Shown here: piece after piece, positions 14,190-36,676 of the stretch
Position numbering within the stretch: the stretch's first letter is position 1
Layout: every line of letters begins with the position of its first letter
Position numbers and translations under genes: made by a program
The notes under the pieces: model-generated
What the model saw: only the letters and a program-made list of their open reading frames with translations
Databases searched by the model: none
What the model was told of the DNA's origin: nothing
Origin: Escherichia phage EP01
DNA: 64,000 nucleotides
Reading direction: 5' to 3' (one strand)
Sequence record: OM135583.1

Positions 14190-14380
14190 TTTGAATGCTC
14201 TATAATTAATTTTAAAGCTTCTTCACTGACAAAAATTTCGTCAGGACCTTCTATAATTTCAACCATACGAAGTTGATTAGTTAAGAGCTCACACACGAGC
14301 TCTTTGTTATAATCTTTAAATAGCTGGTCAATACGTTTCTTATGGGCTTTCTTAAGCTGACGTTTATTTAAACGAGCCAT
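14186..14380 (-). CDS. hypothetical protein, 64 aa
   Basis: ORF track. Confidence 0.4.
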   Translation of the reverse strand: MARLNKRQLKKAHKKRIDQLFKDYNKELVCELLTNQLRMVEIIEGPDEIFVSEEALKLIIEHSK

Positions 14381-14898
14381 TAATAGCCTCGGTCTTGACG
14401 AGCGAAGTTTTCGGCATTTTTCAGATAATAAAGTTTAAAGATTTCTTCAGCTGACATTCCAAGAGCAATGAATTTATTCATGAAAAAGTGAAATTGGTCA
14501 ATTAGTTCAAATTTAATTTCAAGTTGATCTTCAGGAGATAAATCTTGAATTTTCTTGGATTGCATTTCAGAATAACGTTTCTTCCAAGGTTTCCATACAG
14601 CAGAAGCTTCTTTTTCGCCATTACTCATACCGCCAAGAGAAGTATATAGCTCGCGAGTTTCGTCTGCGATATAATCGTCTTGGTTTCGCAGCCAAGCAAG
14701 AACTTCTCCTGCAGTTTCAAGCGAATCAGGATGACGATTTGTTTCTGGCTTATCATTAGCCAAACGAATCTGTAAAGACCGCTGCATATCAAGCATAACC
14801 TGCAGTGGGTCAATATTGTGCATAATATTCTCAGCATATGCACGATTTGCTTTATCAACACCTTCGATCAAATGAGCACATTCATTAAAGTGAGCCAT
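14380..14898 (-). CDS. 56: dCTP/dCDP pyrophosphatase (MazG-like), 172 aa
   Basis: MAHFNECAHLIEG N-terminus and synteny; start placed at ATG 14898 behind AAGGAAA. Confidence 0.85.
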   Translation of the reverse strand: MAHFNECAHLIEGVDKANRAYAENIMHNIDPLQVMLDMQRSLQIRLANDKPETNRHPDSLETAGEVLAWLRNQDDYIADETRELYTSLGGMSNGEKEASAVWKPWKKRYSEMQSKKIQDLSPEDQLEIKFELIDQFHFFMNKFIALGMSAEEIFKLYYLKNAENFARQDRGY

Positions 14899-14958: not shown

Positions 14959-16298
<1,340 letters not shown>

Positions 16299-18933: not shown

Positions 18934-18963
18934 ACTATACCATAGTCCTGTCAGCTTGTAAAC
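18934..18963 (-). promoter_or_regulatory. early promoter upstream of dmd
   Basis: GTTTAC-N-TGGTATAGT. Confidence 0.6.
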
Positions 18964-20390
18964 TAAAATTTTAATTCATTTGCCAAAGCATCTAACTGGG
19001 CTCGAGTAGATTCGTTTCTTTGATAGCGATTCTGCTCAGCCTGAATCTGCTGTGAACCTGCTACTTCGTTCACTTCAGTTGGAGTAGAATCTTGTTCAAT
19101 TTCTACCCATTTCTGATTTCCTTTTTGAACGCCCATCAAAAACTTATTCCATTTATTCTTATCACCATATCGTGATTTGATTTGCTTAATGAGTTGCTGT
19201 TCAGCCGCTGCTAACTCCTCGGTTTCAATGACCGCAAGCATAAAATCGGCTGTTGCTGGAAGACCGGCAGATTCTGCAATATCGCTCATGTTAACATCAG
19301 AAGAATCCCAAGCTTGCTTACCAACCTGTGCTGCAGTCCAAAGAACAGTTTCGGTTTCAACAGCTAGAGCACGCAATTCCTCTGCGATAGCTTTAACAGT
19401 TGTGTAACTATTTTCTGAGTAAACTCTGATGCGACAAGATTTACAAATGCCCAGATAGTCGACAATAATGATTGTTGGAACAAAATTCTTCTTGAGCTTC
19501 AATTCGTTCAAAAGAGAACGAAATGTATTAGCGTCTGCTCCACCAGTAGGATACTGTTTAACGATTAAACGGCCGAGAGTAGATTTCTCACGCCATTTTT
19601 CCATTTTTCCTTTATATTCAGCGTAAGAAATATGCCCATCATCAATGTCATCAAGAGAAACATCGAGCATATTAGCGTCAATACGCTTAGCACAGACTTC
19701 TTCTGCCATTTCCATTGAAATGTAAAGAACATTATGACCGAGCTGTAAATAATCTGCCGCCAATGAACACAGACCTAATGACTTACCAACGTTAACGCCA
19801 GCCATTAAAACGTTCAGTGTTCCAGTCTCAGCTCCGCCTTTAGTAATTTTATTTAGAATTTTGAGTTTAAATGGAACCTTACGAGCTTTATTCATATAAG
19901 ATAGCCAACGTGCTTCGTAGTCATCCATCCAATCATGACCAACGTAACTATCAAATGAAATTGACAATGCTTGGCGCATGATGTCAGGAATAGCACCTAC
20001 ATCTGGCATTTTCTTATTGCGTTTTTCCGGAGGAAGCTCAGCATTGGTTTGAATTTCAATTATTTTAGATGTGGCGTTAAACATCGCCCTTTGCTGAACA
20101 TATTTTTCTGTTTCTTTTACTAACCAGCTGTGGTCTTCCGGAGAATCGGTTAGTTTTGAAATAAGTGTTTTTACACCAGAATATTCTGTTTCAGTAAATG
20201 AACTATTTTCTAATGCAACATTTAACGCATTAATAGATGGAACGCTATGGTACTCATTAACATGAGATTTAATTAATTTGAATGTATTTTTAGCTGGACC
20301 ACTTTCAAAATATTCTGAATCCATATATGGCCAAACTTTTGAAAAATAAGCTTGATCAAATATGAGATGAGAAAGAATAATTTCTACCAC
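18963..20390 (-). CDS. 41: replicative DNA helicase (DnaB-like), 475 aa
   Basis: Walker A GVNVGKS; 475 aa. Confidence 0.95.
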   Translation of the reverse strand: MVEIILSHLIFDQAYFSKVWPYMDSEYFESGPAKNTFKLIKSHVNEYHSVPSINALNVALENSSFTETEYSGVKTLISKLTDSPEDHSWLVKETEKYVQQRAMFNATSKIIEIQTNAELPPEKRNKKMPDVGAIPDIMRQALSISFDSYVGHDWMDDYEARWLSYMNKARKVPFKLKILNKITKGGAETGTLNVLMAGVNVGKSLGLCSLAADYLQLGHNVLYISMEMAEEVCAKRIDANMLDVSLDDIDDGHISYAEYKGKMEKWREKSTLGRLIVKQYPTGGADANTFRSLLNELKLKKNFVPTIIIVDYLGICKSCRIRVYSENSYTTVKAIAEELRALAVETETVLWTAAQVGKQAWDSSDVNMSDIAESAGLPATADFMLAVIETEELAAAEQQLIKQIKSRYGDKNKWNKFLMGVQKGNQKWVEIEQDSTPTEVNEVAGSQQIQAEQNRYQRNESTRAQLDALANELKF

Positions 20391-20399
20391 ACTTACTCC

Positions 20400-20756
20400 T
20401 TAAAAGAATTTAAATTTTTTCTTTGACCTTTTATTAAATGCATCTTGTAGTTGCATTGTAATACATTTTTCTACATGAGGAGCTAACTCAGCTTTTCTTT
20501 CTTGGTCAAGAACAGCAAAGTCCATTACGACTTTTCCATCAACCCAATCTAATTTTGTCACATACACAATGTGTGTAGAACCATCTTCTAGTTTAATGAC
20601 AATCTCCTGGATAACATTTTCCATGGCAGATTTAATTATCTTAAGAGATTCATTAAAAAGACGTTCTTTTCTTTCTTCTTCCCCCTCCGAAGAGGGGGAT
20701 TCGTCGATAATTTCTAAATCTAAATCATCTTTATTCATTAAATTCTTCCATATCAC
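20400..20756 (-). CDS. gene 40-position protein, 118 aa
   Basis: Acidic ORF between uvsX and 41. Confidence 0.55.
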   Translation of the reverse strand: MIWKNLMNKDDLDLEIIDESPSSEGEEERKERLFNESLKIIKSAMENVIQEIVIKLEDGSTHIVYVTKLDWVDGKVVMDFAVLDQERKAELAPHVEKCITMQLQDAFNKRSKKKFKFF

Positions 20757-21912
20757 TTAACTGATCTAGGTCAGTTTCTAAATCAGCTGCTGATTTACTT
20801 TTACTTTCTGGAGATTTAAATTTTTCAACCTTTGAGTTAATCAATTCATCAACTTCAGCTTCAACAATTTCATTGCTATCAATAGCACCTAACTGATAAG
20901 CACGTTTAATAGCATCTCGGAATGGTTGATGCTTAAATAAAGGACCCCAGAATGTAGTGCAATTGGTATCTTTTGCACGCCAAGATTTTTCTTCGCGAAT
21001 CATCTCACCGGTTTCTTCGTCAAGAAATTCACGAGCATACCAACCGTTTTTAGGTTTTACTACAAATCCTAATTCAAGAGCCATATCTAACAATCCAGAA
21101 TAAGGATCGATACCACCGTCAAATTTAACATCAATAAAGAATTTACTTTTTTCTTTGACGGTACGAGATTTTTCTACATTTAGAACAAATTGATACCCCT
21201 GGAGATCAGAACCATCTTTAATCTGGCGCTTACCGATAATGAATACAGTATCAGCTGAATACATTACGCCTGTACCACCTGTCATCACGGTTTTACTAAA
21301 CATTTCAATTGTTTCAATTGTATGGTTAACCGCAACACATGGAATGTTTTTAATACTAAAATAAGGAGTAACAATACGGAATAATGACTTCAGTGATTTA
21401 GCACGAGTCATATCTGCCACAGATTTTTCATTCAAGGCATCTTCCGTTTCTTTCTTAGAAGCCATATTACCGATTGAGTCGATGAATACAATAACTTTTT
21501 CACCGCGCTCGATAGCTTCAAGCTGATTCACCATATCAATTTTCAGTTGTTCAACTGACTGGATTGGTGTATGAATTACTCGTTCCGGGTCAACTCCCAT
21601 GGATCGCAAATAAGCTGGAGTGATACCAAATTCGCTATCATAGAATAAACAAACCGCATCAGGATATTTGTTCAAATATGCCGCAACCATAGTCAAAGAC
21701 ATATTTGATTTAAAGTGTTTAGAAGGACCTGCAAAAATGGTTAAACCAGACTGCATACCACCGTCAATCGCACCTGAAATAGCGATATTAAGCATTGGAA
21801 TTTTTGTACGGATTACATCCTTTTCATTAAAGAATTTAGATGTAGTCAGTTCAGCAGTCATTTTAGAAGTGGAAGCTTTAATCAAACGGGATTTTAAATC
21901 TGCAATAGACAT
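20731..21912 (-). CDS. uvsX: UvsX recombinase (RecA-like), 393 aa
   Basis: Walker A GPSKHFKS and overall match to T4 UvsX. Confidence 0.95.
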   Translation of the reverse strand: MSIADLKSRLIKASTSKMTAELTTSKFFNEKDVIRTKIPMLNIAISGAIDGGMQSGLTIFAGPSKHFKSNMSLTMVAAYLNKYPDAVCLFYDSEFGITPAYLRSMGVDPERVIHTPIQSVEQLKIDMVNQLEAIERGEKVIVFIDSIGNMASKKETEDALNEKSVADMTRAKSLKSLFRIVTPYFSIKNIPCVAVNHTIETIEMFSKTVMTGGTGVMYSADTVFIIGKRQIKDGSDLQGYQFVLNVEKSRTVKEKSKFFIDVKFDGGIDPYSGLLDMALELGFVVKPKNGWYAREFLDEETGEMIREEKSWRAKDTNCTTFWGPLFKHQPFRDAIKRAYQLGAIDSNEIVEAEVDELINSKVEKFKSPESKSKSAADLETDLDQLSDMEEFNE

Positions 21913-21989
21913 TCATTTTTTCCATAGGCATCATTATATTTTCCTCACTGGTTAAAGATAGGGTAATTATAACACAATAAATTTAGGCA

Positions 21990-22832
21990 TTAATCAACTG
22001 CTATTGGATGAATAGCATTAAACTTATGAAACGCTTCTGATTTTTCTTTGCGCGAAACACACATACGAAGAACCTTTAATGGCTCGTCTTCTTCACCCAA
22101 CGATTTTCGTTTTTCAATATTCGATGTTTTCCAACGAGCTTGCTCTGGAAACTCTCTATTGATTTGCTCAAGAGCTCTATTATGTTTTGAATTACTACGA
22201 ATTGAGCTGCATCCACCGGGAGCCTGTGCTTTTCCAGATACAACTAGATATTTGAACAAGGCCAAATGCGGATAACCTTGATTAATTAAATTGAGAAATG
22301 CATACATATCTTCGCATAAATCAATTTTTCCATACCCAATTTGTTCTGTTGTAAGTTTCCCGAGGTCATACCATGTATTCGTGAATCCATATGAATTTTC
22401 ACGATAATTACCCCAAGATGAAGTAATTTTAAAAATAGGTAGACGAGCATGACCATGATAATACCCGCAATCCATAGCATCTTCAACGTATTGAATCAAT
22501 TCATAGAACTGTTCACGAGTTAATTGATTAATTTTATCTACGCAGCGACGATCATCTTTCTTTCGCATTGAACTCATACGAATAGTAGTATCATCATCAA
22601 CCATCCAGATTCGTTGACCTGCATACATATCAGTAATTGCTTTACGAGTTCCAGCAATTCCATTAACATCATCAGGAATAGTTATAATTTTAGCTCTAGA
22701 CCCGTAAGCGTCATAATAAGCTTTTTCTTCGTGTTCACGTACTACAATATGAGGTTCATAATCAGTCGGAAACATATCAAGGGCAGAAACTGCCCCTACG
22801 CGTTGATAGCTTGGAATTACGAATTGAATCAT
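21990..22832 (-). CDS. GT-A fold glycosyltransferase, 280 aa, at the beta-gt locus
   Basis: N-terminal VIPSYQR (GT2-like) and WMVDDD DxD motif; not the T4 beta-gt sequence. Confidence 0.7.
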   Translation of the reverse strand: MIQFVIPSYQRVGAVSALDMFPTDYEPHIVVREHEEKAYYDAYGSRAKIITIPDDVNGIAGTRKAITDMYAGQRIWMVDDDTTIRMSSMRKKDDRRCVDKINQLTREQFYELIQYVEDAMDCGYYHGHARLPIFKITSSWGNYRENSYGFTNTWYDLGKLTTEQIGYGKIDLCEDMYAFLNLINQGYPHLALFKYLVVSGKAQAPGGCSSIRSNSKHNRALEQINREFPEQARWKTSNIEKRKSLGEEDEPLKVLRMCVSRKEKSEAFHKFNAIHPIAVD

Positions 22833-23470
22833 TTAAGTGCCTTACATTTGTCAAAATGGTATCTTGTCATATTTGGCCCACGTCCTTTTAGTCCGCAATG
22901 CGGACATATTTTTTCTATCAAATTATGAGGTTTTCCTTTACGATTTTTAGACATCGTTTCTTTAATTATTTTAGCTTTTTCTGCGCCAAAAATTTCTTCA
23001 TAAGTTTTACCAGAATTTTCCTTTGCTCGATTTATAATTCCATATGCCTGCTCATTTTTACCATACATTGGATTACCTTCGCCTTTCATTCTTTTAGAAT
23101 GATCAGGACGCTTGATTCCACGAAAGGCATTTCCGCACTTATATCTTTCTTCTGGAGATAGTTTTTTACCGTACATTCCATTTAATTTGCCTGGAAAACT
23201 TCCTCCCCATGCTTCATTCTTTAAATTATATGAATCCGGACAATTAGCAGCATCTAAACAAGTTAAAATAATTTCTTCAACCTGTCTAAACATTGGTCCT
23301 TCATATAATATTTCTTTATTAAAGGATTTTATTCCATATTTCTTTTTAGCATGTTGCCAAACTACACCCGAACCATCATAATTCGGGTTGTGACCATCAT
23401 GACTTCCTATATACCACTTTTTAGTTTTAGGATGTTTATACTTATAAACATGTGGCACATTTACTTCCAT
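22829..23470 (-). mobile_element. GIY-YIG homing endonuclease gene (seg-like), 213 aa
   Basis: VYKYKH...WYIGS GIY-YIG module plus repeated NPMYGK motifs; inserted between glycosyltransferase and gene 42. Confidence 0.7.
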
Positions 23471-24201
23471 TTTCCAGTATAATCCTTTTTAGCAATATGA
23501 GTTTCACCAGTGTTCCACCAATGGTCAACTAAATAAAACTGATTTTCGTACACATGAAGACTTCCAACGTTCCATATAATAGAACCTGCTTTATATTGCC
23601 GCGATGGGTCGCCTGCATTCAAATCAGATACTAATTTATCTAATACGTATTTTTGCCATGCATAATCATTACGATAGCCTGCCCAGCAATCATTGCTTCT
23701 CATGTTAACCACTGCATTGACTTTCTTATCACGAATCAGGTACTGTACTGTATTCGTACACATGAAATCTGACATGCCATCTTTATTGTAGTCAAACTGC
23801 ATGGATGGACGAGTATAAATCATGATACCACGGCGAGAATCAGGATTTTGACCAAGTTCAGCTAAACACATATCATACTGAGCATAGTTATCTTCTGACC
23901 AAATAGCCCAACCATAATTCGAGTTAATTTCGCCTTTAGAAGATGCTACCTGTTGCCAAATCTTCGGTGTTTCACCTGGAATATCTTTAACAAACAGACT
24001 TTGAGACTTATACCATTCAAGTTCACGTTGAATGTATTCATCATTAAGAGCGCCAAAAATAAAAGGTTCATCTGCTACAAATGATGCACCAATAATTTCA
24101 ATAGTTTTAACACCGGTTTTATCAATTACGAAATCTTTTTCCTTTAATGCAATTCCCAAATGAAGACGGATTTCTTCAACTGTCATAGAATCATTAATCA
24201 T
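23461..24201 (-). CDS. 42: dCMP hydroxymethylase, 246 aa
   Basis: Thymidylate-synthase-like fold; near-identical to T4 gp42. Confidence 0.95.
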   Translation of the reverse strand: MINDSMTVEEIRLHLGIALKEKDFVIDKTGVKTIEIIGASFVADEPFIFGALNDEYIQRELEWYKSQSLFVKDIPGETPKIWQQVASSKGEINSNYGWAIWSEDNYAQYDMCLAELGQNPDSRRGIMIYTRPSMQFDYNKDGMSDFMCTNTVQYLIRDKKVNAVVNMRSNDCWAGYRNDYAWQKYVLDKLVSDLNAGDPSRQYKAGSIIWNVGSLHVYENQFYLVDHWWNTGETHIAKKDYTGKWK

Positions 24202-24354
24202 TTAAACCTCAATTGATACATTCATATTTAACTTGTAACAGTAATAAACTCCACCCTATAATAAGCGTTGGAATCATACAAGGAACTGCTACGCTATAGT
24301 ATATACTTATTATAATCATCAAGATTAAAAGCAATACTGCTAAAATTTTGCTTT

Positions 24355-24606
24355 TCATTCCTTCTCTCTGATGATAATTACTTGATTTGGCTGTGTTGAC
24401 TTTTTAGTTTCACCAGCAATTGACCAAATAAAAGTAATAAACCAACCAATGATTGACCAGTTAAACAGTAAAGATGTGAAAAAGATTCCTACTGTCGATT
24501 TTGACCCACGCATCAAGGCGATGAACCACGGAAGCATGTATATAATAATAGCCAACACGCCTGAAACTAAAACCATAAAAATTGAACCTGCTACTAAAGT
24601 TTCCAT
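24355..24606 (-). CDS. imm: immunity (superinfection exclusion) membrane protein, 83 aa
   Basis: Two TM segments, 83 aa, between 42 and 43. Confidence 0.7.
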   Translation of the reverse strand: METLVAGSIFMVLVSGVLAIIIYMLPWFIALMRGSKSTVGIFFTSLLFNWSIIGWFITFIWSIAGETKKSTQPNQVIIIREKE

Positions 24607-24613
24607 GTTTTCC

Positions 24614-25006
24614 TCACTTAGTCAAATTTTTTACACATGAATTATAAGAATTCACTACATACTCCATTGGAGCATTTTTACCAGTACGCCATTGATAATT
24701 ATTAGCCCAATTAGCCCAAAGTTCAGCACAGTAGCTTTCAATTTTTTCTTCACGTGTAATCACATCTGAATTACGATATGCTTGGGCAGATTCATCTGGA
24801 CGAATAGCTTCGTCAAAATTCGCCTGCATTTGTTCTACTGTCTGTTTTGGAGCCTCTTTATAACACTTAACATTAGGATTATAAAATTTGCTTGAACAGT
24901 TTACAATTTTTCCTACATCAGACTGATTTACTACTGGTCCTTGAGCTACACAACCAGTAAGACCCAATGCAATAACCAAAATAGCGATTTTCATTTCATT
25001 CTCCAA
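24614..25006 (-). CDS. predicted lipoprotein, 130 aa, MENEM N-terminus
   Basis: Signal peptide with lipobox LTGC; downstream of repeated promoter cassette. Confidence 0.55.
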   Translation of the reverse strand: MENEMKIAILVIALGLTGCVAQGPVVNQSDVGKIVNCSSKFYNPNVKCYKEAPKQTVEQMQANFDEAIRPDESAQAYRNSDVITREEKIESYCAELWANWANNYQWRTGKNAPMEYVVNSYNSCVKNLTK

Positions 25007-25085
25007 ATCCGTATCAGTTGATAGTTATATAGTACCATAAAGGAACCGGAATGTAAACCATTTTGTGAAAAAATTTTTAATAAAT
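24992..25085 (-). repeat. repeated promoter/RBS cassette, copy B
   Basis: See copy A. Confidence 0.65.
25028..25058 (-). promoter_or_regulatory. early promoter within repeated cassette copy B
   Basis: GTTTAC ... GGTACTATA. Confidence 0.55.
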
Positions 25086-25140
25086 TCAAAGGGCCCAGAA
25101 TCATCTATTTTTCCTAAGTATAGATTTATATTATTTGTAT

Positions 25141-25162
25141 GAAAAAGGGACCCGGAGGTCCC
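25141..25162 (-). terminator. intrinsic terminator downstream of gene 43
   Basis: GGGACC-UCCG-GGUCCC hairpin followed by U5. Confidence 0.65.
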
Positions 25163-25175
25163 TAGATTTATTCTA

Positions 25176-27872
25176 TCAGCCAAACAGGAAGTCTAACGAA
25201 GCTTTTTCCTCATAGTCCATACCTGCCGATTCACACATGCCCGCAAGCGGTTTAACAAACGATTTTTGGAACAAAGTTGAGTAGTCAATCCAAGACAGTA
25301 CATCAGAACGAATTTCTTTTGGAAGTTCCGTACCCGATGGCCAAGCAATGCACTTGTCACCAAATGGATTTCCTTCACGTAATGGAAGAACCATTACCTT
25401 ATTTCCATCCAAAATTGGAGCTACACCTAAACCACTAACAGCTCGACGATAAGTTAGCACACCGCGAATATGGAACGGACATTTAAATCCTGGCCAACCT
25501 TTATCGTCATATTTCGCTATATCGTTCGCAGTTTTTACTTCAGCAATAACTTTATAGTCAAGTTGACGATATTCTTTCTCAAAGTTCTTGTAGTATTCTT
25601 GGACAGACTCTTCACCTTCCTGAAGAATACGACGAATACTTTCTTCGAGAGCTTCTTGTACTGCTTTTGGTGTTGAACTCTGCTGAGTTTCCATACCCAT
25701 GATTTTTAGATGTGGTTCAGCAAATCGCTTATCTTCCATATCATAAACGTTCAGAGCATAACGTTTTTTCGCTTTCCAAAATCCACCGACACCCTTTGAA
25801 CCAAGTGGAGGGCAAGAAATAGCTTCACGGTCCATATGCATCAGATGCTCGCGGTTATTCATATAATCACATAACTCACGATATGCAACATCAATCATAG
25901 GTTCCATCTTTTTCTTACCAAACTGATTCATGAATTCAACTAAATCATTTTGTTCTTTAAAGCGGTCAAGACCTACTTTTTCAATAACTTTATCTACACA
26001 AACATATACCGAATCAGTATCACCTGCTGCGATGAAATCTTCACCATCAGTTCCACACACCTTATTCAGGTATTCATTAATTTTACGAGCAATCCACTGA
26101 ATACCGACTTGACCAAAAATTGTGATAGCAGTAGCATTTCGCAAATCATAGTAGCGGAAATGAATATTACCAAGAGCACCATAAAGACTGTTGATAAGAA
26201 TTTTACGGTTCAGCTGATTTGTGTTAGCAAGTGTAGCTGCTTTTTCACATTCTTCGATCAGACTATTAAGAACAGATTCAGTGTAATTCGATAATTCGTT
26301 TAAGAAATCATCATTGAACTTAACATATCGTTCAACTTCTGGTTTAGTTGAGCAAGACCCTGCGCCTTTCATAATAATCTTTTTAATAGCTTCGGCATTC
26401 ATTTCTTCAGCGAACATTTTCTTTTTCCAATCTTTACGCTGGAAAAATACTTTAGCGATTTCCTTTGGAATGATACCTTCTTGATGCTTATCGTACATCC
26501 ATCCATTCGGAGAACAAGAATATTCATCACTCGGTTTAGGAGCTGTTCCTGCGATATATTCATGAATTGGATGAACTTTAAACTGACCACGAATAGTTTC
26601 AGGACTAATGTTAACCTGACGAATAATACTCGGATACAGAGACGTCAAGTCAAAACTCATAATGTATCGACGAGCAATCGCTTTAGGTTCAAATACAAAT
26701 GCACCTGGAAAACTTTGTTTAACGTGCGAACCTTGTTGAGGAATAACCTTATGTTCACCTTTCAATGAGTTAAAAATAATAGCATCCCAAGTTTTAATAG
26801 GACTCATTACACCAGAAAAAGGCATTTTAGCGTAATAAGACATACTTAAAACTAGATCAATAAACCCGCGAATTTTATCAATTGCTTGAACTGATTCTAC
26901 GTCAATAATGTTATAACTAATGTATCGTTGATGATTAGTCTCACGAAGTTTATTAATAGGACCATCGTACGGCAATTTACCTTTTTTGGTTTCGTGCTGA
27001 GCAACTGATTCCAAAGAGAATGATGGCAAATTAGTAAATGCGAATTTTTTGTACAAATCTAAATAATCAAGAATAGATACGCCATCAATAGAATAAATTT
27101 CTTTGCTACCGTACATATTTTGAATTAGTTTAGATTTTACTCGACCGATTGGAGAGAAACGTTTCATACTACGTTCACCGAGAACCATTTTAACACGATT
27201 CATGATATACGGAACGTCAAATCCCTCAATATTCCAACCGGTAAAAATAGCAGGTCGTTTCTGTTCCCAGAGATTAATATATTCCATGAGCATATCACGC
27301 TCATTATCAAATGGCATATAAATTACTCGGTCAAGAATTTCCTGAGGAACTTCATCACCACCTTCACAGTCAAGCTTAGCAGCTAACTTTGCATCCCATT
27401 TTGATACTGAGCCGTACATTGAATTCAACAAATCAAAGACGTAAAAACGGTCGTCAATTGAATCATAATGAGTGATAGCATCAATTTCATATTCTGCTTT
27501 CATTGGGTCAGGAAATTTATCACCAGTAACCTCAATGTCGCAGTTAGCTACACGAACAAATTTTCGGTCATAAACAATTTCTGAACCATATGTATCACTG
27601 ATATAAGCGAGTTTAAAATCGTTCATACCGAGAGCTTCGAGACCGATGTCTTCCATTCGTTTCATCCAGTCTCGGGCATCTTTCATTGATGGAAATTTTT
27701 GAGGAGCACAATTTTTACCATAAATGTCTTTGTATTTTGACTCTTCCTTACAATGCCTAAACATAGTCGGAAGATATTCTACTTCACGAGTACGTTCCTT
27801 TCCATTTTCATCAATATAACGTTCAACAATATTATTTCCGACTGTTTCGATAGAGATATAAAATTCTTTCAT
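25176..27872 (-). CDS. 43: DNA polymerase (family B), 898 aa
   Basis: 898 aa with exonuclease and YGDTDS polymerase motifs. Confidence 0.97.
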   Translation of the reverse strand: MKEFYISIETVGNNIVERYIDENGKERTREVEYLPTMFRHCKEESKYKDIYGKNCAPQKFPSMKDARDWMKRMEDIGLEALGMNDFKLAYISDTYGSEIVYDRKFVRVANCDIEVTGDKFPDPMKAEYEIDAITHYDSIDDRFYVFDLLNSMYGSVSKWDAKLAAKLDCEGGDEVPQEILDRVIYMPFDNERDMLMEYINLWEQKRPAIFTGWNIEGFDVPYIMNRVKMVLGERSMKRFSPIGRVKSKLIQNMYGSKEIYSIDGVSILDYLDLYKKFAFTNLPSFSLESVAQHETKKGKLPYDGPINKLRETNHQRYISYNIIDVESVQAIDKIRGFIDLVLSMSYYAKMPFSGVMSPIKTWDAIIFNSLKGEHKVIPQQGSHVKQSFPGAFVFEPKAIARRYIMSFDLTSLYPSIIRQVNISPETIRGQFKVHPIHEYIAGTAPKPSDEYSCSPNGWMYDKHQEGIIPKEIAKVFFQRKDWKKKMFAEEMNAEAIKKIIMKGAGSCSTKPEVERYVKFNDDFLNELSNYTESVLNSLIEECEKAATLANTNQLNRKILINSLYGALGNIHFRYYDLRNATAITIFGQVGIQWIARKINEYLNKVCGTDGEDFIAAGDTDSVYVCVDKVIEKVGLDRFKEQNDLVEFMNQFGKKKMEPMIDVAYRELCDYMNNREHLMHMDREAISCPPLGSKGVGGFWKAKKRYALNVYDMEDKRFAEPHLKIMGMETQQSSTPKAVQEALEESIRRILQEGEESVQEYYKNFEKEYRQLDYKVIAEVKTANDIAKYDDKGWPGFKCPFHIRGVLTYRRAVSGLGVAPILDGNKVMVLPLREGNPFGDKCIAWPSGTELPKEIRSDVLSWIDYSTLFQKSFVKPLAGMCESAGMDYEEKASLDFLFG

Positions 27873-31281: not shown

Positions 31282-32964
31282 TTAAACCATTACAGTAAAC
31301 CGACCAACTTTCTTCATTTGAAGATGCTGACCATATTCTTGCGGGTCATGGTCTTTATGCGAAATTATAAAAACATTAGTATTTTTCATTGAATTTATAA
31401 TATTAGCTACGCCTTTAATACCTTCGGCATCAAATGACCCATCAAACACTTCATCGAGTATTAATGTACTAATACTAACACCAGATACAATAGAAGCAAT
31501 ATCACGCCAAGTAAATAAAAGAGCAATATCAATTCGTGCTTTTTCACCTTCACTAAATGAAGCATAACTAAAATCTTCACGACCACGGGATTTAATTGTC
31601 TCATTAAATTCTTCATCTAATGTAAACACATAATCCGCTTCCATTATTTTAAGATAATGGTTAATCTGCTTATTAAATAATGGAATGTACTTTTTAATAA
31701 TAGCACCTTTAATACCAGAATCTTTGAGCATATCAGTCAAAATTCCTCTGTGGTATTTTTCCATTACTAAATTAGTTTTTGTCTTAACAATTTTATCAAG
31801 TTCTTCTTGAAGCAGTGCTATTTCATCAGCATGGTCAATAAACTCAGATGATGCTTTTTCTATAGCCGCTTTAACTTTTTTAGCTTTATCTACCGTCGTG
31901 ATTAGAGATTGCTTTTTATTGCGAATATCATTTGCCAACGTCTGCTGGGTTTTAATATTATCTCGGTATTCGTCAACAAGAACTTTTAAATTATCACGAT
32001 GCGTTGAAAGCTGTTCAAATGAATGCGTACATTCAGAAACTTTATCTTTAATTTTAGAAACAACTTTATCACCAGAACTTAATTGTGACAAACAGGTTGG
32101 ACATAATCCACCTTCGTGATACATATTAATGACTTTATTATACGAGTCAATTTTTGATTTAATTAAAAATGCTTCTTGACCGATTTTATTAAATGCATCA
32201 GTCGGGTCTTCATCCAAAACAATATTAACTAATCTTTCATTAGCTTCTTCTATTTCCGATTTTAGCGTTCTAGCTTCTTTTGCCAAATCATCATACATAT
32301 TCTGCAGACGAGTAAGGTTATCACCAGTTAATTTTTTCTGGCGTTCAACGTTATCATTATATATTTTAATTTGTTGGATAATACTATCTTTTTTAACATC
32401 AAGCACTTGGTTTTGTGAATTTAATTCACGTATTAGTGCTTTATTAAGCTTATCCATTTCAGCTAATGTTCCTACCTCAAGCAGGTCTTCCACAAGCTTT
32501 CTTCGCGCAGGGGTCGACAAACCCATGAAAGGGGTATACCCTGCTGTACCAAGGACAACAATCTGCTTGAAACTGGCATATGACATTCCGATAAGCTGTT
32601 CAAATTCTGCTTGGAAATCTTTACTGCTGGCAGATTCATTAAGACGTGTACCGTTAACGGTGATTTCGAAAACGTTTGGTTTTTGTCCTCTTTTGATATA
32701 GTACTTTTTCTCATCATATTCCATCCACAGTTCAACTAAAAGTTCTTTCTTATTTGTGCTGTTTATTAATTGACCTTTCTTTACATCACGGAATGGCTTG
32801 CCAAAAAGCCCAAATGTGATGGCTTCTAACATAGTAGACTTACCACCGCCATTTCGTCCAGTAATAAGAGTTTTTTGAACCTTATCTAATTGAATGTCAA
32901 CTCCATTTTGACCAACTGACATTATATTTTTATATTTTACTCTATTAAGTTTAAATGATTTCAT
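31282..32964 (-). CDS. 46: recombination nuclease ATPase subunit (Rad50/SbcC-like), 560 aa
   Basis: Walker A GRNGGGKST, coiled-coil middle, CPTC zinc hook. Confidence 0.92.
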   Translation of the reverse strand: MKSFKLNRVKYKNIMSVGQNGVDIQLDKVQKTLITGRNGGGKSTMLEAITFGLFGKPFRDVKKGQLINSTNKKELLVELWMEYDEKKYYIKRGQKPNVFEITVNGTRLNESASSKDFQAEFEQLIGMSYASFKQIVVLGTAGYTPFMGLSTPARRKLVEDLLEVGTLAEMDKLNKALIRELNSQNQVLDVKKDSIIQQIKIYNDNVERQKKLTGDNLTRLQNMYDDLAKEARTLKSEIEEANERLVNIVLDEDPTDAFNKIGQEAFLIKSKIDSYNKVINMYHEGGLCPTCLSQLSSGDKVVSKIKDKVSECTHSFEQLSTHRDNLKVLVDEYRDNIKTQQTLANDIRNKKQSLITTVDKAKKVKAAIEKASSEFIDHADEIALLQEELDKIVKTKTNLVMEKYHRGILTDMLKDSGIKGAIIKKYIPLFNKQINHYLKIMEADYVFTLDEEFNETIKSRGREDFSYASFSEGEKARIDIALLFTWRDIASIVSGVSISTLILDEVFDGSFDAEGIKGVANIINSMKNTNVFIISHKDHDPQEYGQHLQMKKVGRFTVMV

Positions 32965-32979
32965 TTTGTATCCAATTGT

Positions 32980-33834
32980 TCACAATGAAGAAAATTCTTT
33001 AACTAAAGCCTGTAATGAAGCCTCTATTGGATATCCATTCTTAACTAACATTTTCCTAAACATCACATGTTTAGGACGATTATATGATATCCACAATTCA
33101 TACAATTTATCTTTATTATCCCAATGATAGCCTTTTCGTCTAGATGCTATATGAGCTTTTCTAATCTCCGGATTTTTCCAACTAGCAGCTACTGAATTTG
33201 ATATAGCTATTTTATATTCAGGTTTTGATAAAGCAGCACGAACAGCCTTTTGGTGTTTAATTTTATTTTCTTCGTTATTAAACCATTCCCTTGAAGCCAT
33301 TGAAATTTTTTGTTTTGTTTTAAAATTATTTAATCTTTCTTTGTTATCTTTCCTATTTTTTGCTACTGAAAAATATTTTAATGCCCTTTCTCTAGCAGCA
33401 TTTCTATTTTGCGGATTTGAATAATACTGTTGAAGCCTTTTTGATATTGTGTCACTTACATCTTGTTTTATAAAACTATATTCAGCAGCTATTAAATCAA
33501 CTTCGGCTAAAGATAAATTTTTATATGTTTTTCCTGACATCATTCTATTTAAAGCATTTAGCATTTTTCCATTTTTACCTTTTGCTAATAAGAAGTGTGC
33601 TTTAAAATGATTAAAATGACTTAAATTAACTAAATTCCATGTAGATTTTAAATATTCAGGAAATATTGATTTAGGAAGCACGTGGTGTGCTTCCGTTTTA
33701 CCTGGAGTTTTAACAGTTGAATTCATAGAAATAAAATTAATGTAAGACTTGGCGTCTTCTTCACTCAACGCTAATTTTTCAACTAATTCCTTTATTAAAA
33801 ATTCATCATTAATGTCAAGTTTAAAATTCTTCAC
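32980..33834 (-). mobile_element. HNH-type homing endonuclease gene, 284 aa, GTG start
   Basis: AHHVLPKS...NLVNLSHFNHFKAH motif and repeated basic DNA-binding modules; inserted between 46 and 47. Confidence 0.65.
33798..33834 (-). repeat. ~36-bp direct repeat copy 1, at HNH endonuclease start
   Basis: gtgaag...ttgacattaatgatgaatt on minus strand. Confidence 0.55.
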
Positions 33835-35457: not shown

Positions 35458-35475
35458 AAAGGGCCGAAGCCCTTT
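35458..35475 (-). terminator. UUCG-tetraloop hairpin at 3' end of alpha-gt
   Basis: Same aaagggccgaagcccttt sequence as at 29878. Confidence 0.5.
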
Positions 35476-36676
35476 ATTTTGTAATAATGTCAAACTGTTC
35501 TTTAAAGCAGAAGCTTGAATCTTGATGCTGATACAGAAATTCATAAGCTTTTTCACGTTCACGGTCATAAAGAGCTCGATCAGATGACAGTTCTTTAATA
35601 CGTTCAAATGTTGATTCCATGTCATTTTCATCAAACCAAACGATACCGCTATCATGAGAAATTAACGGAGTATTATCAACACGGAATTTTAAATTTTCAC
35701 CAGTAGATTTCCAAAATACTGGAATTGTTCCGCATGCACCAAGCTCGAGATGAGTGTATTCTAAAGAACGTTGTAGATATTTTTTATCTAATTTACTCAG
35801 CTGATAACCAAATCCGGATTTACTCATACGTTCAAGCATTTCGCTATTTACATAACGATCGAGAATTTGCGTTGGCAAATTAGGAGCAATTTTAATTTGG
35901 TCTACTTGATGAAGACGATAATACTCATATGGAATTCCTTTTTCTTTAATAGGAATGAATGCTGGAGAACGTTCCAGACCTTCCATAATAGTACTTAGTC
36001 CTGCAGGTTTAAGATGTTTTTCGTGAAAATCAAACATCTGGTAAAAACCTTTCCATGTAGTCGTACGACCAATCCAACGGTTGATATTCATGTTAATTTC
36101 AGAAACATCTTTCCAGTAGGTTGATCGAACCTTCGCAATATCCATAGGAGGCTGAAAGTTATATACGGTCGGTGCTTCTTCAATATCATCAAACAAAGAA
36201 ACAGTTTCCGGATACCATTCTTTCATTAAAACTTTATTAAAATCGCCATTATCAGAATGACTAAAAATAACATCAGCTCGACGAACAGTTTCTTCTAATC
36301 CCAAATTTCGGCGTAAAGAAAGAGAAGAATGGTCATGCTGATAAACTACAACACGAACCGAAGGTTTAATATTATCAATAATTTTTTTATAGTTATTAAT
36401 TGTGTCTTCTTCGACTGAAGTAGCAGGAACTGAATTGATAATTAGAATATCACAATCATTTACCAGCTTAAGTGTTTTATCGTATTCTTTTGCCAATAAA
36501 ACCGGAATTGAAAATGATTTATAATCATGCGCGCAATTACGAGTAAATGATTTATCTTTAGCATAAACCAAAGTTACTTCATGACCATTTTTAATAAACC
36601 AATCACGTTGCTCAAGAGAAAATTTAGTTACACCGCAACCTTCAAGACCTCGAGCCATAAAAATACATACTTTCAT
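35474..36676 (-). CDS. a-gt: DNA alpha-glucosyltransferase, 400 aa
   Basis: 400 aa, near-identical to T4 alpha-gt as I recall it. Confidence 0.93.
   Translation of the reverse strand: MKVCIFMARGLEGCGVTKFSLEQRDWFIKNGHEVTLVYAKDKSFTRNCAHDYKSFSIPVLLAKEYDKTLKLVNDCDILIINSVPATSVEEDTINNYKKIIDNIKPSVRVVVYQHDHSSLSLRRNLGLEETVRRADVIFSHSDNGDFNKVLMKEWYPETVSLFDDIEEAPTVYNFQPPMDIAKVRSTYWKDVSEINMNINRWIGRTTTWKGFYQMFDFHEKHLKPAGLSTIMEGLERSPAFIPIKEKGIPYEYYRLHQVDQIKIAPNLPTQILDRYVNSEMLERMSKSGFGYQLSKLDKKYLQRSLEYTHLELGACGTIPVFWKSTGENLKFRVDNTPLISHDSGIVWFDENDMESTFERIKELSSDRALYDREREKAYEFLYQHQDSSFCFKEQFDIITK

Follow-up and report, generated by a model that had tools for sequence, protein, structure and literature searches.

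Which glycosyltransferase does this phage encode between uvsX and gene 42, and which modification of its DNA would follow? In T4, the equivalent slot (between uvsX/segA and gene 42) is occupied by beta-gt, a GT-B enzyme (PF09198). The original prediction, which was made from the DNA alone, was that the gene in this phage encodes a GT-A enzyme and that, together with an alpha-gt, it would lead to the T2/T6 pattern of hmC glycosylation rather than the T4 pattern. We consider it very nearly certain that the gene is the ba-gt of a T4-like (Tequatrovirus) phage that makes gentiobiosyl-hmC by the pathway described below. The level to which this modification is made is a separate matter, and our statements about it are more tentative.

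Identity and setting of the gene

The window, i.e., the whole stretch of DNA that was analyzed, spans 64 kb; the entire genome would be about 167 kb. Among the open reading frames (ORFs) listed for 19500..25500 is one of 280 aa with an ATG start at 21990..22832 on the minus strand, whose translation begins MIQFVIPSYQRVGAV. It matches 478 phage records at 90-98% nucleotide identity by megablast, and its nearest protein cluster has E = 5.6e-189; we therefore take it to be a real gene and not a chance ORF. Nearly all of these records are from Tequatrovirus, and the majority are annotated as beta-glucosyl-HMC-alpha-glucosyltransferase (ba-gt). This assignment is shared by PHROG 842 (phrog_842, ‘beta-glucosyl-HMC-alpha-glucosyltransferase’), to which the protein scores 296.9 bits, and the protein also matches Pfam PF20691 (TAGT, TET-associated glycosyltransferase) over profile positions 2-205 of 205, scoring 37.3 bits where the cut-off is 27.5. 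There is no NCBIfam model for it. The kinship with the T2 and T6 enzymes that the original prediction supposed is borne out by alignment with the genes from their records: amino acid identity is 98% to T2 (AP018813) and to T6 (MH550421, NC_054907), and the length of 280 aa is the same. Identity rises to 99% for the proteins of phages EH2, AdolfPortmann and ZJUN4, and to 99.6% for the best database proteins, which are one residue (I78V) away.

The gene order is 41-40-uvsX-ba-gt-[Seg-like ORF]-42-imm-43, which is that of T2 and T6 except for the inserted ORF, and a 9-kb region around ba-gt is colinear and 96-98% identical with many Tequatrovirus genomes. All of these genes lie on the minus strand: the gene 41 helicase (18963..20390), gene 40 (20400..20756), uvsX (20731..21912, downstream of ba-gt), gene 42 (23461..24201, upstream of ba-gt), imm (24355..24606) and the gene 43 DNA polymerase (25176..27872). 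Gene 42 encodes the dCMP hydroxymethylase that makes the hmC precursor; its product is 93% identical to T4 gp42 and matches the thymidylate synthase family (PF00303, 54.9 bits). The predicted location of a 280-aa gene between uvsX and gene 42 is thus correct as to the gene and its order, but the gene does not abut gene 42, because the inserted ORF intervenes.

This inserted ORF (213 aa, 22829..23470, minus strand) encodes a Seg-like homing endonuclease of the GIY-YIG/NUMOD3 type. It matches PHROG 314 (‘homing endonuclease’, E = 1.8e-31), has a weak match to NUMOD3 and is 37% identical to T4 SegA over 111 aa; one record names it SegD. Its overlap with gene 42 is 10 nucleotides, and at its other end the TGA stop shares bases with the ATG of ba-gt (ATGA). 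T2, T6 and EH2 lack it, and their ba-gt overlaps gene 42 directly. At ≥95% identity the ORF is found in 77 phage records, and in 71 of these the identity is ≥99%, whereas the adjacent ba-gt reaches only 90-98% identity among records. Because its identity across records exceeds that of its neighbor, the pattern suggests a mobile gene that has been spreading recently. With the insertion, the bases immediately before the ba-gt start differ from those in T2, T6 and EH2, and this altered context could change the translation of ba-gt.

Elsewhere in the window, a 284-aa ORF at 32980..33834 (minus strand), just upstream of gene 46, has weak similarity to T4 MobB, an HNH-type homing endonuclease (32% over 98 aa). 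It fills a stretch of about 860 bp (32955..33818) that is absent from the closest relative, PP216085, and is probably, judging from its sequence, another mobile endonuclease insertion.

On its other side, ba-gt is separated from uvsX by a spacer of 77 bp (window 21913..21989), which reads TGCCTAAATTTATTGTGTTATAAT on the coding (minus) strand; T4 has segA between uvsX and beta-gt. Lying upstream of uvsX, the spacer appears to resemble a T4 middle promoter in its elements, i.e., a MotA-box-like TGCCTA, 12 nucleotides and TATAAT. A scan of 20500..25200 found no excess over shuffled sequence of either promoter-like (18 versus 19.1) or terminator-like (4 versus 2.1) matches.

Conserved residues and predicted fold

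A HMMER scan of 1.84 billion representative proteins yielded 330 homologs at E ≤ 0.001, and we aligned 102 full-length sequences, with identities down to approximately 20%. Three residues are invariant in this alignment (D80, D175 and G207), and a further nine are at least 90% conserved: I6, P7, R11, R63, D79, D81, G186, G206 and R212. The two motifs named in the original prediction are both present in the translation. The first, VIPSYQR (residues 5-11, 22800..22820, minus strand), is the motif of the first beta-strand (E3-7 in the model) and ends in R11; with the preceding residue it reads FVIPSYQR in the ORF translation (residues 4-11, 22800..22823, minus strand). Its I6 and P7 are found in 95 and 93 of the 102 sequences, and R11 in all 101 that have no gap at this position. 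The second is a DXD-type motif, DDD (residues 79-81, 22590..22598, minus strand; coding strand GATGATGAT), located in the model at the end of strand E74-78, within WMVDDDTT (residues 76-83). D79, D80 and D81 are conserved in 101, 102 and 99 of the 102 sequences, respectively. By analogy with the GT-A family, DDD would bind a metal and the UDP-sugar.

The alignment further reveals a conserved acidic pair, E174-D175 (22308..22313, minus strand; 85 and 102 of 102), as a candidate catalytic base region, for which we infer a catalytic role in this enzyme, and a family motif, GGCS (residues 206-209, 22206..22217, minus strand), with G206, G207 and C208 in 101, 102 and 87 sequences. The window protein has R11, D79-D80-D81, D175, G206-G207 and R212, each of which is kept in 99-102 of the 102 aligned homologs.

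These data bear on the possibility that the gene is an inactive remnant. Such a proposal can draw on T6, since both public T6 records carry lesions in ba-gt, and the locus can thus be defective, whether in the laboratory stocks themselves or only in the records sequenced from them. However, the window ORF is full length, has no frameshift or stop and retains all invariant residues, and we regard this proposal as the least probable of those we considered. The T6 lesions themselves differ. In MH550421, codon 10 is TAG in place of CAG, and the protein is annotated as 261 aa from M20. In AP018814/NC_054907, Q10 is kept, but one Asp codon is lost, such that DD replaces the conserved DDD and the protein has 279 aa; the protein of the NC_054907 record, YP_010067197.1, was the TAGT query in published work (PMC13216743). 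The lesions could be either stock mutations or sequencing errors. A start at M20, as annotated in MH550421, was considered for the window gene and rejected: the annotation is due to the TAG at codon 10 in that record, and residues 3-11 are family-conserved.

Searching the PDB by sequence revealed no solved relative (best E = 0.69, spurious), and the fold was therefore predicted rather than read from a relative. The AlphaFold2 (AF2) model built from the family alignment has a mean pLDDT of 94.9 and a pTM of 0.92. It forms a single GT-A-type domain, and does not have the two-domain fold of GT-B enzymes. Foldseek against the PDB returns WrtF, AvpGT, K4CP, TarS and TarP (E ~1e-6, TM ~0.5), all of them GT-A, and the structural neighbors listed are GT-A enzymes or related nucleotidyltransferases. 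Since DDD lies after strand E74-78, the place of the DXD motif in GT-A enzymes, its position together with the structural matches supports the assignment of the modeled protein to the GT-A fold. The expectation of a GT-A enzyme therefore agrees with the model, which resembles only GT-A enzymes among its top structural matches. The T6 TAGT has been reported to have a GT-A fold and to be a sister group of GT2 (PMC13216743).

Despite this fold, the enzyme is distant from cellular GT2-like GT-A enzymes (TarS, TarP, K4CP, SpsA, GalNAc-T1), with which it shares only 8-16% sequence identity and whose acceptors are polysaccharide, teichoic acid or protein, whereas the acceptor of ba-gt would be a sugar on DNA. 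It was also correctly predicted not to be the GT-B beta-gt of T4: there is no sequence similarity between the two (best BLASTP E = 3.4), and their folds differ, a contrast that has also been drawn previously (PMC13216743). T4 beta-gt likewise uses UDP-glucose and forms a beta linkage (PMC13390438), as the window enzyme would by homology. However, the acceptor of T4 beta-gt is bare hmC, whereas that of ba-gt would be alpha-glucosyl-hmC.

The predicted modification and its extent

The genes that would supply this acceptor, i.e., alpha-gt, gene 42 and a homolog of gene 56, are all found in the window. An alpha-gt at 35474..36676 was part of the original prediction, and that ORF (400 aa, minus strand) indeed encodes a DNA alpha-glucosyltransferase, the enzyme that makes alpha-glucosyl-hmC: its PF11440 score is 783.9 bits, and it shares 91% identity with T4 alpha-gt across 400 aa. 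The gene 56 homolog (dCTPase/dUTPase of the hmC pathway; ORF at 14380..14898, minus strand) maps to a ZJUN4 CDS annotated as dCTP pyrophosphatase, and its match to Pfam dUTPase_2 is just under the cut-off (21.9 versus 22.9 bits). A tblastn search with T4 beta-gt found nothing at E ≤ 1 in the 64-kb window, and nothing at this threshold in the complete 167-kb genome of PP216085, which does carry alpha-gt and ba-gt. For the part of the genome beyond the window, the absence of beta-gt rests on this closest relative, which is 97-98% identical.

The donor, acceptor, linkage and extent of the reaction are inferred from earlier studies of T2, T6 and their relatives. In the pathway we propose, gp42 would hydroxymethylate dCMP, and the phage polymerase would put the resulting hmdC into DNA. 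The alpha-gt would then attach glucose to hmC by an alpha linkage, with UDP-glucose as the donor. Finally, ba-gt would add a second glucose from UDP-glucose, with inversion, to the 6-OH of the glucose of alpha-glucosyl-hmC, and the product would be beta-1,6-glucosyl-alpha-glucosyl (gentiobiosyl) hmC. By homology, the window enzyme is expected to perform this beta-1,6 transfer, and the inverting reaction fits a GT2-like GT-A enzyme. Because no beta-gt was found, no beta-glucosyl-hmC is expected, and approximately a quarter to a third of hmC would remain without glucose, as it does in T2, T6 and those relatives that have been measured.

Published experiments are consistent with this scheme. T6 without ba-gt loses gentiobiosyl-hmC and has only alpha-glucosyl-hmC (PMC11078745; bioRxiv 10.64898/2026.02.25.707755). 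In ten Tequatrovirus phages with alpha-GT and TAGT, and without beta-GT, nucleoside HPLC/MS detected hmdC together with alpha-glucosyl-mdC and alpha-gentiobiosyl-mdC, but nothing in the beta-glucosyl form (PMC13390438). The homology, the presence of alpha-gt and gene 42 and the lack of a detected beta-gt thus give good support to the prediction of a T2/T6-type pattern, with gentiobiosyl-hmC, over the T4 pattern.

It might be proposed that this TAGT-family transferase has a different activity, using another sugar donor or glycosylating hmC directly. TAGT proteins are diverse, and many phages have TAGT homologs alone or paired with beta-GT, with substrates that are unknown (PMC13216743). However, a shift in specificity is hardly to be expected at identities of 98-99% to the enzymes of T6 and EH2, in which gentiobiosyl-hmC has been measured, and no arabinose-type sugar-nucleotide genes were seen in the neighborhood. 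We therefore regard a different activity as highly improbable, and retain the transfer of glucose to alpha-glucosyl-hmC as the expected reaction.

The extent of this transfer cannot be read from sequence with certainty, as it differs between phages that share this gene pair. Gentiobiosyl-hmC accounts for about 5% in T2 and about 72% in T6 (PMC13390438, bioRxiv 10.64898/2026.02.25.707755, PMC6024577). Phages of the Durham Collection with this pair fall into two classes, in which the ratio of hmdC to alpha-glucosyl-mdC to alpha-gentiobiosyl-mdC is 1:2:2 or approximately 1:0:2 (PMC13390438). EH2, whose ba-gt is 99% identical to the window protein, is one of the phages measured in that study and falls in the class where about two-thirds is gentiobiosyl. 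A Dam-type adenine methyltransferase ORF (259 aa, 14959..15738, minus strand) adjoins the gene 56 homolog in the window. The Dam-like gene of this region is common to T4 and, among the Durham phages, is present only in those with the 1:2:2 ratio (PMC13390438); the ORF could be a possible marker of the extent of gentiobiosylation.

T2 ba-gt differs from that of EH2 at only two positions, R11H and P251S. Position 251 is variable or gapped across the family, whereas R11 is invariant, and R11H is thus a candidate cause of the low level in T2. The H11 codon is present in all eight T2/SV76 records, which are 100% identical over a 136-nucleotide query; of eleven records at 99.3% over the same query, the two that were sampled (EH2 and AdolfPortmann) have R11. 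In a scan of IMG/VR, the H11 codon variant occurred in 0 contigs and R11 in 5; from such small numbers one can conclude only that H11 is not common. Like T6 and EH2, the window protein has R11, and it also has P251 and an intact DDD. Because it keeps R11 and all family-invariant residues, we expect, judging by sequence, high gentiobiosylation like that of T6 and EH2 rather than the low level of T2. The fuller explanation, in which H11 makes the T2 allele hypomorphic and the window phage, with R11 and an intact DDD, would be correspondingly T6-like, is one to which we give a little less than even chances. We did not find this explanation of the low level in T2 in a non-exhaustive search of the literature.

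A competing possibility is that the enzyme is active only at a T2-like level, such that a few percent of hmC would be gentiobiosylated and virion DNA would be mostly alpha-monoglucosylated. T2, after all, reaches its low level with the same gene pair, and the Seg-like ORF replaces the upstream context found in T2, T6 and EH2. Moreover, the only private change of the window protein, I78V, lies next to DDD and was not seen in the best 33 records. However, the stop of the upstream ORF still overlaps the ba-gt start (ATGA), family members have L, I, F, M or V at position 78 (we judged I78V to be neutral, and rejected it as a functionally important change), and the window protein has the residues of the highly gentiobiosylated EH2 at both positions where T2 departs from it, of which R11 is universal in the family. 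We consider a T2-like level rather unlikely, although it is a more serious contender than a remnant or a different activity, and our expectation remains a high level.

Relation to known T-even phages

The locus is in most respects that of T2 and T6, where ba-gt (also called g-gt or ggt; PF20691; PHROG 842) has the same motifs, the same alpha-gt partner and the same slot, with gene 42 on its upstream side and uvsX on its downstream side; the differences are the Seg-like ORF, I78V and, with respect to T2, R11. Of the phage genomes that encode GTs, the vast majority combine a TAGT with either alpha-GT or beta-GT (PMC13216743), and twelve RB phages have a T4-type a-gt with a T2-type ba-gt (PMC6024577). 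The combination of alpha-gt and TAGT is the norm in Tequatrovirus and T4 is the exception, so the window shows the common state. The GT-A assignment, the slot shared with T4 beta-gt, the T6 deletion phenotype and the nucleoside measurements were already published, from 2018 to 2026. The gene is a standard, well-characterized one in its usual place, and adds no new biology.

Its value lies in what the genotype implies for the phage. The host defenses that a T-even phage evades are determined by how its hmC is glycosylated. Both the Brig1 glycosylase and the BapA glucosidase attack alpha-glucosyl-hmC, but gentiobiosyl-hmC is resistant to them (bioRxiv 10.64898/2026.02.25.707755; PMC11078745). 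GmrSD-type enzymes still cut gentiobiosyl-hmC DNA (PMC13216743). The presence of alpha-gt with ba-gt thus helps to predict host range, resistance to defenses and the behavior of the DNA with restriction enzymes.
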